64,000 nucleotides of DNA from Syntrophales bacterium. GTDB taxonomy: Bacteria > Desulfobacterota > Syntrophia > Syntrophales > PHBD01. The translations under genes were made by a program, and so were the position numbers. The notes beneath the pieces are model-generated. The model was not told where the DNA came from, did not search any database, and saw only the letters and a program-made list of their open reading frames with translations. How positions within the stretch are numbered: the first letter of the stretch is position 1; every line of letters begins with the position of its first letter. Location: positions 2,112,001-2,176,000 of the forward strand of contig OY764159.1 in assembly GCA_963668175.1 (NCBI GenBank), read 5' to 3'. Positions 30,554 through 42,243 of this stretch are shown piece by piece.

Positions 30554-30699
30554 TCGGTAAATAATCATTATATTATACTATATTTATATTGCATTAGGCC
30601 GGTTATCATTTATAATATCAGTATAATATCCTGACATGGCCGGATGGCGAGGGGGAGTTCGTAACCGGTTGATATTTTTAAGCGAGGTGCATCATGAAT
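30554..30699 (+). repeat. ~146-bp AT-rich promoter/leader block, duplicated at 39047-39192
   Basis: Near-identical TCGGTAAATAATCATTA...GCGAGGTGCATCATGAAT in both copies; includes TATAAT boxes and RBS+ATG. Confidence 0.92.
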
Positions 30700-30704
30700 A
30701 GGGT

Positions 30705-30813
30705 AATTCCTGGGAAAGCGTCCCTGACAAGGGGACAGGTCCCCCGCAGGGGGGAAAGTCCCCCGCATGGGGGACGATATCCTCAGAATTTTGTCAAAAT
30801 TCTGACTACGGAG
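30705..30813 (+). repeat. Hairpin block (2x TCCCCC-N4-GGGGGA plus TCAGAATTTTGTCAAAATTCTGA palindrome), copy 1
   Basis: Homologous block at 32953-33099. Confidence 0.9.
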
Positions 30814-30920
30814 CGGCCGATATGGGGCGGATCGTTTCTTTGTTAAAGATGCAGACAAAAAGGACGTTGCGGCACAGTATCTCAAAGACACCATATGCAA
30901 TCTGCGAAAGGCGATAAACA

Positions 30921-31496
30921 ATGACTTCTAAATTGAGGCGGCTGCTTGCATGGAAAAATCGAATTTTTAAGGGTTTCACGCTCTGGCCGACCATCGTGAT
31001 GCTGTTGTATTTCCTGCAATGGTGGGTATTATTTTATTGCCAAGATGACGTTATCCAATTTTTTTTATTCATTATATTGGTGTTCTTATTTCCGGCAGTC
31101 TGTTTTATTTGTGCACTGGTGTTGCTCGGAAGAAAAAAACCGAAGTCGTCTTTATCCTTACTTACCCCGGCATTGCTTGTGGTCTTTATGTTTCCTCTGG
31201 GGAGTAATCCTATCAAAGATATTTTCTACGATTCACGCCAATATGTAGAATTCCAAATCCAGAAAAGATTCTATTTCCCGGAGATGAACGACCCCGATAA
31301 GCTGCCCCCATACAAAGAATGGCTTATCAAAGGGCATCCTAATATCTCTAAGTATACAATTGTTTACGATTTAAATGAATCCCTGGATGAGAGAGAAAAA
31401 AGGAAAAAAGCCGAATTGCATGACCCAAAATACTGGGGTTACCGCATAACGAGAGTCGGTCGGCATTTCTATATGCTGCATGAATATTACCATTGA
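30921..31496 (+). CDS. Membrane protein, putative immunity protein for the downstream effector
   Basis: Three TM segments plus soluble C-terminal part; shares V.FQ...Y, Y.+.YD and G.HFY motifs with 41668-42243. Confidence 0.65.
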   Translation: MTSKLRRLLAWKNRIFKGFTLWPTIVMLLYFLQWWVLFYCQDDVIQFFLFIILVFLFPAVCFICALVLLGRKKPKSSLSLLTPALLVVFMFPLGSNPIKDIFYDSRQYVEFQIQKRFYFPEMNDPDKLPPYKEWLIKGHPNISKYTIVYDLNESLDEREKRKKAELHDPKYWGYRITRVGRHFYMLHEYYH

Positions 31497-31521
31497 AGTT
31501 ATTTAAAAGGAGGGCTGGAAG

Positions 31522-39891: not shown

Positions 39892-39896
39892 GCTGG

Positions 39897-41093
39897 ATGC
39901 CGAAAGAAACAAATTACAATATCTTAATCGATAAAACGCCTGGCCGTTCTGCCGGGAACAGTCGAAAAGCAGGGGCTGCTCCATACGAAGTGAAGGTGAA
40001 AGCCGTGGAAGCGATCAGGAAGTATGCAGGTCTTTATGGATTCAATGAACATCAGACCAGCGAAGTCTTGAAAATCGTGGAACACGAATCTGGATTTAAT
40101 CCAGATGCTGCGAATCCAGACACAACTGCGTCCGGACTAGGACAGATGATGAATGACACGTTTGAGCAGTATGGGCCGCGTGGTGCGAATATTTTCGATC
40201 TGGATGCCAACGCAGAGGCAACAGTCAGATACTATCAACATTGCCTGAACAAAGCCGCAGAGAAAGGACTGACCGGAGAGAAGTTGGATACAGGTGCGTA
40301 TGCGTGTTATCATGACGGCCCGTGGAATTTTAAAGCCGGTAAGGATAAAAAAGGTGCGGATATTTATAAAAAGGTCATTAAAAAATTATCCGGTAAGCCC
40401 AAGGTTAGCAGTAACGAACGCTCCTCCAGCAACTCCGACAAGGTAGCCGAGGCGACGGAACGGGATTCCGAGCGGACAGCCGCGGCTGAGCAGCCGGACG
40501 ATGCTTATTCAACCGAAGACAGGAAGAGAAAAGACCTCGCGGGAGACGACGCCGAATCTGAAACGGCGTGGAGAGGCGGAAATTCAGATCGTCGAAGCAT
40601 ACCTAATTCATGGATAGCGGATGCCGGTAACGTGCTTTCAGATGTGTCCGGAAATGCTCTTCAAAGCGCCCTCCGCGAGGCAAGAAAGCCAACGGATGTC
40701 GAATCGGCCGCGAACACGATGACGCTTCGTGAGGCGCCGACCGATTTGCTTGCCGAACCGGGTTCTCCATTGCAGCACGTAATGGATGCGCTGGGGGTGT
40801 CGTCCGGCGATGTGCATTTAACCCCTGCGGAAGCGGACGATGAGAACGAGACACCGGACTCCTTCGATATTGTGGATAAGGGCACATCCGAAAAGATAGG
40901 CTCTTGTTTGACGACACCCGGCGGCTGCGAGATGACCGCAGGCGACCGGAAGGTCGTGATGGACCGGATAAGCGGTAATGACATTCACCTGCAAACGTAT
41001 GCCAAAAACGACGATGGAGATTTTGAGCTCGTTGGCACAACGCGAATCGGCGACAACGACGGGGTAACGGCAAGAAGGCCGTTTGCGGGTTAG
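39897..41093 (+). CDS. Putative effector 3: lytic transglycosylase-like N-terminus plus shared C-terminal domain
   Basis: IDKTPGRSAGNSR, HESGFNPDAANPDTTASGLGQM, YACYHDGP; no signal peptide. Confidence 0.8.
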   Translation: MPKETNYNILIDKTPGRSAGNSRKAGAAPYEVKVKAVEAIRKYAGLYGFNEHQTSEVLKIVEHESGFNPDAANPDTTASGLGQMMNDTFEQYGPRGANIFDLDANAEATVRYYQHCLNKAAEKGLTGEKLDTGAYACYHDGPWNFKAGKDKKGADIYKKVIKKLSGKPKVSSNERSSSNSDKVAEATERDSERTAAAEQPDDAYSTEDRKRKDLAGDDAESETAWRGGNSDRRSIPNSWIADAGNVLSDVSGNALQSALREARKPTDVESAANTMTLREAPTDLLAEPGSPLQHVMDALGVSSGDVHLTPAEADDENETPDSFDIVDKGTSEKIGSCLTTPGGCEMTAGDRKVVMDRISGNDIHLQTYAKNDDGDFELVGTTRIGDNDGVTARRPFAG

Positions 41094-41167
41094 CGAATGA
41101 GGCCGCTTCGTGATGCGATTACGAGAAGCGGTGCAGCGCACACAGACATTGACCGGAAGGATAACGC

Positions 41168-41536
41168 ATGCGAGATGAATTTTCTTTCTCTGAAGTCGAA
41201 CGGATTGTTCCGGCTATTAAAAGAAGCACCGCCCAGATGTGGGTCAAGGCTGGGATTATTGTGCCGAAAGAGAATCATGTGGGCCGAGGGGTGTCGCGGG
41301 TTTACTCTTTCGAAAATCTCATTGAGCTTTTTGCAGCTGCGGAATTATCCGGATGTTGGGGGATGGCCACGAAGGGCATAGAATCGCATCTGAAGCGTCC
41401 AAGGTTTAAGAGTGCCGTCAAAGAGAGAGGCGTCTATTGCCGTGTTCGCTATGGTAACGATGCAGACAGCGGCATTACATCGGCTGTGATAATATTCATT
41501 GGAGAAATTGCGGCGGAGATAGAAAGGCGGCTGTAA
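41168..41536 (+). CDS. MerR-like HTH DNA-binding protein (phage type)
   Basis: FSFSEVERI...RSTAQMWVKAGIIVP.....GRGVSRVYSFENL. Confidence 0.65.
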   Translation: MRDEFSFSEVERIVPAIKRSTAQMWVKAGIIVPKENHVGRGVSRVYSFENLIELFAAAELSGCWGMATKGIESHLKRPRFKSAVKERGVYCRVRYGNDADSGITSAVIIFIGEIAAEIERRL

Positions 41537-41667
41537 TATCGGCTCGATTAATTAGTCTTAGAAAAACCTTGACAGTCCCTATATTCCTCTATTAATAGAT
41601 ATACAATCTGCATAGGACGAATGGTTTATTAAAACACAGGCAGAGCAACACGCATTGTCGGCCTGCT

Positions 41668-42243
41668 ATGACATCCGCTTCCGATCAAACCGTTAATACT
41701 GCGCCGGAGTCGCTCACAAGCGATCATTATACAATCTTTCATTTAATCCTCCAGCTCGCTTTTGCCGCGCTGTTATTCTTTTTGAACGAACTCGATAGAA
41801 GGCTGAATCTCTATCTGCTGCTGGTTCCGCTCCTCCTTGTCCCGGCATTAGTAGTGGTGATTATCTGGCTGACCAGCGTCATAACAAACAGCATTAGAAA
41901 GAGGTGGCGTCGTCTCGCTTCCGCCGTCATTGCACCGGTGATCATTTTTTGCCTCATGGCCTCGCTTGCTCACTGGCGGATCGATGCGGATTGGGTACGC
42001 TTTCAGGCAAACCATCGACACTATGAAAAATCGGTACAGTTCCTCAAGGGGCCGCACCCCAGACATGTTACGTGGGATTGGGGCCATACCGGAGGCGCGG
42101 CGGTCGTCTGCATTGATTACGAACTCCACTACGACGAATCCGATTTAACAAAGCTCCGAGATGGAGAGAGGAAAGGGGGCGGTATCATCAGAGTCCGCGA
42201 TTTCGGAAACCACTTCTACCTCGTTACCGCCGTCTATCAATAG
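41668..42243 (+). CDS. Membrane protein, orphan homolog of the 30921 immunity-like gene
   Basis: Three TM segments; WVRFQ...HY, YELHYDESD, RVRDFGNHFYLV; same length (191 aa). Confidence 0.65.
   Translation: MTSASDQTVNTAPESLTSDHYTIFHLILQLAFAALLFFLNELDRRLNLYLLLVPLLLVPALVVVIIWLTSVITNSIRKRWRRLASAVIAPVIIFCLMASLAHWRIDADWVRFQANHRHYEKSVQFLKGPHPRHVTWDWGHTGGAAVVCIDYELHYDESDLTKLRDGERKGGGIIRVRDFGNHFYLVTAVYQ

Follow-up and report, generated by a model that had tools for sequence, protein, structure and literature searches.

What kind of system is specified by three neighbouring genes whose products differ at the N-terminus, are nearly alike over their last ~110 residues and are each preceded by a gene for an envelope protein? 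The question is raised by a 64-kb stretch of DNA (hereafter, the window) from a Syntrophales bacterium (contig OY764159.1, positions 2,112,001 to 2,176,000), in which three such modules, designated A, B and C, lie on the + strand between 30.5 and 42.3 kb (Table 1). Module A consists of a gene for a 191-amino-acid (aa) protein followed, after a gap of 25 nucleotides (nt), by the gene for effector 1; in module B, two genes for secreted proteins precede that for effector 2, and in module C a single gene for a secreted protein precedes that for effector 3. We propose, with a probability of roughly 0.55, that these represent three toxin/immunity modules of a narrowly distributed polymorphic antibacterial effector family of reverse polarity, in which the common C-terminal domain (C-domain) serves as the delivery module. 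Judged by the architecture and by the contexts of relatives, the effector/immunity reading appears well supported, and toxicity, immunity, export and the export route are the parts of it that we infer.

Three putative effectors with different N-terminal domains

An earlier annotation made from the sequence alone (the first-pass annotation) had described three proteins with different N-termini and a common C-terminal block, a description borne out by the open reading frames (ORFs) at 31522, 34594 and 39897 and by a tblastn search of the 110-aa C-domain against the window, which located it at three places and no others (100, 80 and 76% identity; E = 3e-73, 9e-54 and 7e-48), a result that is, on these scores, far beyond chance. 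The fronts of the three proteins align poorly, and the nearly identical part begins at about residue 351 of the first protein, with 74 to 80% identity among the copies over its ~110 aa. The SLT-like domains claimed for effectors 2 and 3, with the motif E-S-G-F-N-P-D-A-A-N (ES..GLxQ-type), were recovered above the Pfam cut-off of 21.3 bits (PF01464; 30.8 and 37.2 bits, respectively). For effector 1, said to carry an Ntox44-like domain plus LysM, the LysM part stood (53.7 bits, cut-off 20.9), whereas the Ntox44 part (PF15607; 17.3 bits, E = 0.006) fell under the cut-off of 24, as did that of a relative of this N-terminal domain in Rhizobium etli (22 bits). Ntox44 is characterized, in the part of PMC3482391 available to us, as an all-alpha fold with DxK, GNxxxG and DxxxD motifs.

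Signal peptides, whose absence had been reported for the three proteins, were likewise not apparent in any of 31 family proteins, the maximum Kyte-Doolittle hydropathy over 15 residues being at most 1.71 within the first 70 aa in 31/31. The heads are basic or neutral (pI 7.7 to 9.0) and the linker and C-domain acidic (pI 4.2 to 4.8), with whole-protein values of 4.8 to 5.2.

A profile search with the C-domain and a tabulation of the attached N-terminal domains, both of which had been suggested at the outset, yielded 14 clusters, 33 proteins (the search hits together with those of the window) and eight N-terminal classes, the class count being taken over the 30 proteins in which 60 aa or more precede the linker and C-domain as an N-terminal part, and leaving out three fragments. 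The family is polymorphic: the C-domain occurs not on one constant N-terminus but on eight classes unrelated by BLAST, namely, SLT-like heads (11 members), Ntox44-like plus LysM heads (6 members), a class with an NNPGNI motif (4 members), Gly/Ala-rich hydrophobic heads (3 members: P0012, P0029 and P0031), two further pairs (2 members each, one pair LysM-linked), an NlpC/P60 plus CHAP head (P0015 only) and a short protein forming a singleton class. The prediction that the heads are directed at the cell envelope agrees with the SLT, NlpC/P60, LysM-linked and Gly/Ala-rich hydrophobic types, the last of which, in our reading, resemble glycine-zipper membrane toxins. Linker pieces are common to different N-terminal classes. 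At least five further members are reported on one 4,567,304-bp contig which also holds effector 1, such that this genome carries at least seven family copies if the window comes from it, and two members lie on one 7752-bp contig. No plasmid relatives of P0006 or P0012 were found.

A constant C-terminal domain under purifying selection

Comparison of the three copies in the window over their last 78 codons gives dN/dS values of 0.15 to 0.28, and the conservation of the C-domain is, therefore, attributable to selection on the protein and not to homogenization of the DNA alone. In all 33 proteins collected, the domain is located at the extreme C-terminus, 0 to 5 residues from the end, where it terminates in the consensus (V/I)-T-V-R-R-P-F/W-x-G-(L-A), e.g., ..VRRPFAGLA, a tail composed of Arg, Pro, aromatic or small residues and lacking acidic ones. 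An AlphaFold2 model based on 29 sequences (pLDDT 85.6) comprises one helix and eight strands.

The statement that this domain is unrecognized was upheld in Pfam, NCBIfam, the PDB and BFVD, none of which returned a match and hence none of which placed it among known non-export domains; the ESM Atlas also gave no match. Against PDB sequences, neither a single protein nor a profile (at E <= 1) found a counterpart, and Foldseek searches of the model returned no PDB or BFVD match at E <= 0.001. Searched exhaustively with HMMER, 1.84 billion representatives yielded 22 matches, 14 of them at E <= 1e-10 (clusters at 50% identity); the eight weak ones, P0034 to P0041, are WD40, PKD and PA14 repeat proteins and were set aside as noise. 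A word-indexed search of 5.8 billion proteins retrieved 22 C-domain proteins, and an alignment scan of GTDB representative genomes found no relative, nor did tblastn against plasmid records. A likeness to residues ~103 to 185 of a 723-aa Enterobacter protein (E = 0.007 by BLAST among 32 sequences) was discarded, given that the C-domain hidden Markov model (HMM) scored it at E = 1.2 (rank 3 of 3807 ORFs) and that the Rahnella homolog was absent among the 12 best matches. The domain is not described in the literature covered on XVIPCD, Ntox44, type I secretion system (T1SS) bacteriocins and Cdz, which, since a nameless domain is not searchable by words, is weak evidence of its being unpublished.

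The best fold match of the model, which is not significant (E = 0.045, TMq 0.51), is the beta-sheet trimerization domain of TarM, and it bears on an unlikely explanation according to which the C-domain would be an oligomerization, chaperone-binding or auto-inhibitory module and the array would encode envelope-remodelling enzymes and their regulators. Quite apart from the subsignificant Foldseek score, this explanation leaves unaccounted for the Gly/Ala-rich heads, the missing signal peptides on enzymes working outside the cytoplasm, the paired envelope proteins, the multicopy mosaic arrays and the foreign base composition, with a GC3 of 0.54 to 0.62 compared with 0.85 to 0.9 in flanking genes. 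The C-domain could act as a secretion tag, bind the target or combine the two functions.

Upstream partner genes as candidate immunity genes

The observation that each effector gene is directly preceded by a gene for a membrane or secreted protein, duplicated in one case, proved to be as described, except for the starts of the duplicated pair. The two module B partners (81% identical to each other) most likely start at internal Met codons, 33240 and 33979, rather than at those of the longest ORFs, because their relatives are ~190 aa long and the first 82 nt of the longest ORFs are a repeat. The same 82-nt element causes gene callers to lengthen both ORFs by ~42 codons. The upstream proteins are located in the envelope by virtue of signal peptides or transmembrane (TM) helices, and this, coupled with the lack of a Sec signal on the effectors, follows the logic of effectors acting in a periplasm that they do not reach via Sec.

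The further gene at 41668, announced as an orphan homolog, matches the module A partner at 30921 in length, TM layout and a C-terminal G-x-HFY motif, whereas the sequence similarity is weak (25% over 118 aa, E = 0.03 in a single comparison); it is followed by an FRG-domain gene on the opposite strand. The module C partner at 39187 was considered as a relative of the 191-aa family (28% identity in a MAFFT alignment); at an hhalign probability of 0.9% it is not demonstrably related to that family, and it is placed in a different one.

Relatives of the module B partner are more numerous. They form a family in which at least 269 proteins, each ~190 aa long, were counted; Pfam has no model for any of them, and some of the named members are from Betaproteobacteria; the nearest ESM Atlas cluster is labelled as a lipoprotein family of 834 members. 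Copy 2 was modelled with AlphaFold2 at a pLDDT of 90.2, and neither the fold nor the profile of the 191-aa protein matched the PDB. P0013, which is 74% identical to effector 2, and the partner relative P0046 have the same reported longest contig (3349 bp), as do P0007 and P0044 (53403 bp), which points to effector/partner adjacency elsewhere.

A partner relative was present in 34 plasmid records, seven contexts of which were examined. On plasmid PRA1 of Rahnella aquatilis HX2, inside a type VI secretion system (T6SS) cluster, VgrG and a 1162-aa protein are followed by three small ORFs, the last of which encodes the relative (28% identity, E = 1e-15). The 1162-aa protein combines a Tae3-like amidase domain (PDB 4hz9, E = 1e-21), 4HZ9 being the Tae3-Tai3 complex according to the accessible part of bioRxiv 10.1101/2024.06.29.601107, with a lytic transglycosylase domain (9udh, E = 2e-9), and the small ORFs probably provide one immunity gene per toxic domain. 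This cluster occupies positions 10495 to 20107 of locus L092, where the 1162-aa protein is annotated as hypothetical. A 6.1-kb plasmid of Enterobacter carries a relative that is 57% identical to the Rahnella ORF and adjoins a homolog of the 1162-aa protein (E = 2e-41). A large peptidoglycan hydrolase and a small periplasmic protein of the partner family thus recur together in an immunity-like arrangement, and in the window the same family precedes an SLT effector, which constitutes indirect evidence for the assignment.

The Enterobacter arrangement may also be read in another way. Bacteriolysins of the zoocin/lysostaphin type consist of an enzymatic head, a linker and a folded C-terminal beta domain, and periplasmic immunity also serves against colicin M and pesticin. 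It is conceivable, if doubtful, that the proteins of the window are diffusible bacteriolysins or colicin-like bacteriocins released by leakage or lysis, with the C-domain as a receptor-binding or uptake module. Their layout and their periplasmic partners, the well-folded C-domain model, the lack of a secretion machine in the window and the bacteriocin-plasmid-like setting of the partner family beside a peptidoglycan-hydrolase-like gene on a mobilizable 6.1-kb plasmid all fit such a role; yet no lysis gene was seen, known bacteriolysins carry signal peptides whereas the family proteins have none, a length of 110 aa leaves little room for receptor binding and translocation together, and the C-domain has no structural match to a known receptor- or cell-wall-binding domain. 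This possibility and the delivery model are compatible, as target binding may coexist with delivery.

Comparison with known systems

The layout of upstream immunity gene, N-terminal toxin and C-terminal XVIPCD tag, which the first-pass annotation had named for the X-Tfe effectors of the bactericidal type IV secretion system (T4SS) of Xanthomonadales, is correctly rendered according to the available text of PMC8740702. The window reproduces it in the order of its genes (the immunity role being putative) and in the eight N-terminal classes of the family. The same text gives, for X-Tfe, variable envelope-directed N-terminal toxins, a conserved C-domain of ~110 to 120 aa, an immunity gene upstream in the same operon, many scattered copies and a basic terminal stretch in which Arg and small or hydrophobic residues occur and acidic ones do not, all of which have their likeness here. 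It also assigns to XVIPCD a fold of its own, two helices and a three-stranded sheet with a disordered Gln-rich tail, whereas the C-domain of the window is modelled as one helix and eight strands and none of the 33 tails is Gln-rich. No VirD4 or VirB gene is present in the window. Given the differences in fold and tail, XVIPCD is, on this comparison, an analogue and not a homologue.

The polymorphic toxins of the Rhs, contact-dependent inhibition (CDI), LXG and MAF types (Zhang et al., 2012) are similar in having a constant trafficking part, exchangeable toxins and adjacent immunity genes, as well as displaced remnants, orphan immunity genes and modules shared among secretion systems (PMC3482391, as far as its text was available). 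The window differs from them in its reversed polarity, with the constant part at the C-terminus, the toxin at the N-terminus and the immunity gene upstream.

T6SS pairs such as Tae3-Tai3 and the bifunctional Tae17 of Acinetobacter baumannii include cytoplasmically made lytic transglycosylase, amidase and LysM effectors which are toxic in the periplasm alone and are countered by periplasmic immunity proteins (accessible part of bioRxiv 10.1101/2024.06.29.601107), and one member of the 191-aa partner family itself sits in a T6SS cluster. In T6SS, however, the immunity gene usually comes after the effector, and delivery determinants are N-terminal or linked to VgrG/PAAR. Pfam scans of the window and of the family proteins detected no VgrG, Hcp, PAAR or adaptor linkage and no MIX, FIX or PAAR markers. 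Features of type IX secretion cargo were also lacking: the family proteins have no signal peptide and no Por_Secre_tail match, and no C-terminal domain of that system was among the Foldseek matches listed.

With T1SS substrates the family has in common the absence of an N-terminal signal, C-terminal information, an N-terminal functional domain and an acidic protein; it differs in having no RTX nonapeptide repeats (no HemolysinCabind or HCBP_related match in the family proteins scanned), in carrying a folded beta domain instead of a short signal and in the absence of ATP-binding cassette (ABC) transporter and membrane fusion protein (MFP) genes from the window. The glycine-zipper proteins CdzC/D of Caulobacter, which are exported by a T1SS and mediate contact-dependent killing (PMC5380434, in the portion available), provide a parallel to the class with Gly/Ala-rich hydrophobic heads.

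Delivery route

Relatives of the effector 1 N-terminal domain occur in 34 plasmid records, 31 of them from Ralstonia, and the three examined are all linked to T1SS. Plasmid pRetMIM1f of R. etli encodes a stand-alone 238-aa relative (33% identity, E = 3e-16) directly after genes for an ABC exporter (C39 + ABC_membrane + ABC_tran), HlyD and a 151-aa TM protein. This locus (L086, 3738 to 8681), which is unannotated and in which the 238-aa Ntox44-like gene is followed by an insertion sequence, is a candidate for a compact T1SS bacteriocin/immunity system. In two Ralstonia megaplasmids, the domain forms the N-terminus of a ~1950-aa protein, and the copy scanned with Pfam (L084) has BapA-like domains, 11 RTX repeats and HCBP_related. 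The P0008 N-terminal domain has a single plasmid relative, with an RTX toxin-activating acyltransferase 1.2 kb upstream of it.

In the model that we favour, effectors lacking a Sec signal would be made in the cytoplasm, each composed of an exchangeable N-terminal domain, an acidic mosaic linker and the constant ~110-aa beta-rich C-domain ending in R-R-P-F/W-x-G. The N-terminal domain would attack the envelope, as a lytic transglycosylase or a LysM-tethered Ntox44-like domain in the window and, elsewhere in the family, as an NlpC/P60, a Gly/Ala-rich membrane-inserting or one of several unassigned domains, and the upstream periplasmic or inner-membrane protein would protect the producer and its kin once the toxin reaches their periplasm. 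The C-domain would couple all toxins to one common delivery route, as the recognition or translocation signal of an exporter encoded elsewhere and possibly also as a target-cell binder, and modules would be swapped by recombination, with the conserved 3' domain on one side and the common leader or 5' sequences on the other. A type I (ABC/MFP) exporter would be the best fit among known machines because of the C-terminal signal, the lack of an N-terminal one, the acidic substrates and the two N-terminal classes linked to T1SS/RTX; a VirD4-type T4SS (XVIPCD-like) or a T6SS is also possible. The most economical reading is one in which the toxin and immunity modules are drawn from a repertoire common to numerous secretion systems, like those of polymorphic toxins (PMC3482391, available text), with the C-domain then being the system-specific part.

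Several points weigh against this model. No ABC/MFP/TolC, VirB/VirD4, T6SS or extracellular contractile injection system gene lies within the window, library scans of the entire 64 kb having agreed with the earlier statement that it holds no secretion machine. The T1SS link covers the N-terminal domains of two of the eight classes, at few loci, and the comparative evidence names different machines, the immunity family pointing to T6SS and the N-terminal domain to T1SS. The C-domain itself shows neither RTX repeats nor a match to a known secretion domain in the scans above. T1SS signals are usually short and unstructured, whereas the C-domain is a folded 110-aa beta domain, and release to the medium by a T1SS would not alone account for periplasmic immunity. 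The Ntox44 assignment of effector 1 is, as noted above, subthreshold. The partners of effectors 1 and 3 (30921 and 39187) matched no family in library searches and have no informative relatives and no plasmid relative, while four of the seven plasmid contexts of the module B partner family were uninformative and one more was a fusion, the partner domain forming the C-terminal part of a 554-aa protein in R. jaguaris. An upstream TM ORF of Ralstonia, considered as a homolog of 30921 and 41668 owing to a shared G-HFYLV end, was rejected (HMM E = 5.4, rank 8 of 3711), its resemblance not appearing significant.

More tentatively than the toxin/immunity model itself, the C-domain might represent a new secretion or delivery signal and so mark out a new class of polymorphic toxins with reversed polarity, in a bacterial lineage that has been sparsely sampled. 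It would be read either by a non-canonical T1SS-like exporter, with killing that depends on contact or uptake, or by a machine to which no part in interbacterial antagonism has so far been ascribed, and it may double as a target-cell docking module.

Array layout and the surrounding island

The two 150-nt leaders that precede modules A and C (repeat D4) are 96% identical. The 19-nt hairpin motif found in the leaders of modules A and B occurs at six sites (12 strand matches) in the 64 kb, all at 30740-30804 and 32988-33060, compared with an expectation of 0.31, and the near-perfect 21-bp palindrome is present in the window solely at 30740-30804 and 33070-33088; together, they look like an operator or attenuator common to the two modules. 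A remnant of an effector 5' end, 84% identical to residues 2 to 26 of the paralog P0005, forms repeats D7/D9 with 31525-31598. Of the three copies of the 82-nt element (33113-33194, 33855-33936 and 34593-34674), the first two mark the 5' ends of the module B partner ORFs and the third that of effector 2; the element may have arisen by duplication of an effector 5' end, or may be a common translated leader. The displaced remnant, the 82-nt repeat, the duplicated partner gene, the common leader and the IS3 element are signs of cassette turnover. A sigma-70 promoter scan found 18 sites, not above shuffled sequence (13.1 +- 3.8), and a terminator scan showed no excess over shuffled sequence; Rfam gave no match at E <= 1 between 28 and 45 kb, and a tRNA scan found none.

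Table 1. Coordinates of the three modules, their DNA elements and the genes of the surrounding island, numbered within the window
Feature	Position	Strand	Description	Basis
cI-type gene	28691-29158	-	helix-turn-helix (HTH) gene, left part of island (28691..30403)	Pfam HTH_26/HTH_3
Replication-initiator-like gene	29522-30403	+	left part of island	PHROG 270/9474/9327 replication initiation
Leader, copy 1	30550..30699	+	AT-rich, 150 nt, promoter-like; ends at conserved ATGAAT	
Hairpins and palindrome, module A	30740..30804	+	two 19-nt hairpin units (TCCCCCGCAxGGGGGA), then 21-bp palindrome CAGAATTTTGTCAAAATTCTG, directly 5' of the ribosome-binding site	
Effector 5'-end remnant	30815..30889	+	25 codons, no start codon, 5' of module A membrane gene	tblastn
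Module A partner	30921..31496	+	191 aa, three TM helices predicted; immunity candidate for effector 1	
Effector 1 (module A)	31522..32892	+	456 aa: Ntox44-like N-terminal domain (subthreshold), LysM, linker, C-domain (32560-32889)	Pfam
Hairpins and palindrome, module B	32988..33088	+	four 19-nt hairpin units and palindrome; leader of module B	
Module B partner, copy 1	33240..33815	+	periplasmic, ~191 aa; longest ORF from 33114; candidate immunity protein	
Module B partner, copy 2	33979..34554	+	periplasmic, ~191 aa; longest ORF from 33856; directly 5' of effector 2	
Effector 2 (module B)	34594..35700	+	368 aa: SLT domain, acidic linker, C-domain (35365-35697)	Pfam
Excisionase/MerR-like HTH gene	35798..36007	+	69 aa, after effector 2	PHROG 66, E 5.7e-6; NCBIfam MADS1 HTH subthreshold
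IS3-family element	36609..37897	-	between modules B and C; orfA 37454-37897, orfB 36609-37457	Pfam HTH_Tnp_1, rve, rve_3, HTH_21
Leader, copy 2	39043..39192	+	AT-rich, 150 nt; the 39187 gene starts at its ATGAAT	
Module C partner	39187..39891	+	234 aa, secreted (signal-peptide-like h-region, AFA/AE); immunity candidate for effector 3	
Effector 3 (module C)	39897..41093	+	398 aa: SLT domain, mosaic linker, C-domain (40755-41090)	Pfam
Possible orphan immunity gene	41668..42243	+	191-aa TM protein, no effector gene after it	weak match to 30921
FRG-domain protein	42326-43237	-	right end of island	PHROG 4962, E 8e-26
Small membrane protein	43334-43789	-	after FRG gene	

The third-position GC content of the island is about 0.4 to 0.6, against 0.85 to 0.9 in flanking genes, among which that of a GGDEF protein has its best matches (51 to 52% identity) in uncultured metagenome-assembled genomes, without synteny (GTDB representatives). 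The claim of a phage-like element or decayed prophage was in part sustained by the initiator, cI-type and excisionase-like genes, whereas Pfam and PHROG scans of the window detected no integrase, structural, terminase, lysis, holin or spanin gene, and the absence of a tRNA likewise leaves the claim weakly supported. An origin of the modules as lysis genes or virion-associated lysins of a phage or satellite, with the C-domain in wall binding or virion attachment and holin-like upstream proteins, is the least probable of the explanations weighed here. The SLT heads do match PHROG tail lysin and tape-measure families, and the three phage-type genes are close by; yet tblastn found the C-domain in none of 50,697 phage records, its fold has no BFVD match, three lysins within 10 kb with at least four more elsewhere in the genome do not resemble a lysis cassette, two of the upstream genes encode soluble proteins of the periplasm and not holins, and some heads are not peptidoglycan hydrolases. 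The features of modular phage endolysins, i.e., a known C-terminal cell-wall-binding domain, accompanying holin or structural genes and presence in phages, are all lacking in the family.

Other observations in the window lie outside the array. Upstream of the island, a 480-aa protein with a Scabin-like (ADP-ribosyltransferase) domain (22522-23964, +) adjoins a caspase-domain protein with an Lcl C-terminal domain (24306-25583, +), and the two may be another toxin or defence pair. A low-GC block (38 to 48%) at 2583-9663 has the appearance of a separate defence island, its products including an 8xMP membrane protein, a metallophosphoesterase, a 674-aa ORC/CDC6-like ATPase and a D12 adenine methyltransferase. 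Four PEP-CTERM proteins (21320-22168, 45742-46692, 47863-48483 and 52189-52893) imply an exosortase system in the organism. A 342-aa AAA_5 ATPase (54881-55909) appears to have a partial duplicate in a 187-aa ORF (56907-57470, -) with AAA matches from the same residue numbers, and the pair adjoins a VWA CoxE-like gene (53232-54614).

Significance

With 14 clusters at 50% identity among 1.8 billion representatives, the C-domain is narrowly distributed, and the generality of these proposals is limited accordingly. Exchangeable antibacterial toxins are routed to a delivery machine by only a small number of known constant domains, XVIPCD being the main case with an N-terminal toxin and a C-terminal tag. 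A second, unrelated C-terminal module, carried on at least eight kinds of head, would provide an HMM handle for finding both toxins and immunity proteins, point to the machine which reads it and supply a portable export tag. For the more than 269 uncharacterized periplasmic proteins of the module B partner family, which have no Pfam model, the analysis suggests a likely role in immunity against effectors of the lytic transglycosylase type.

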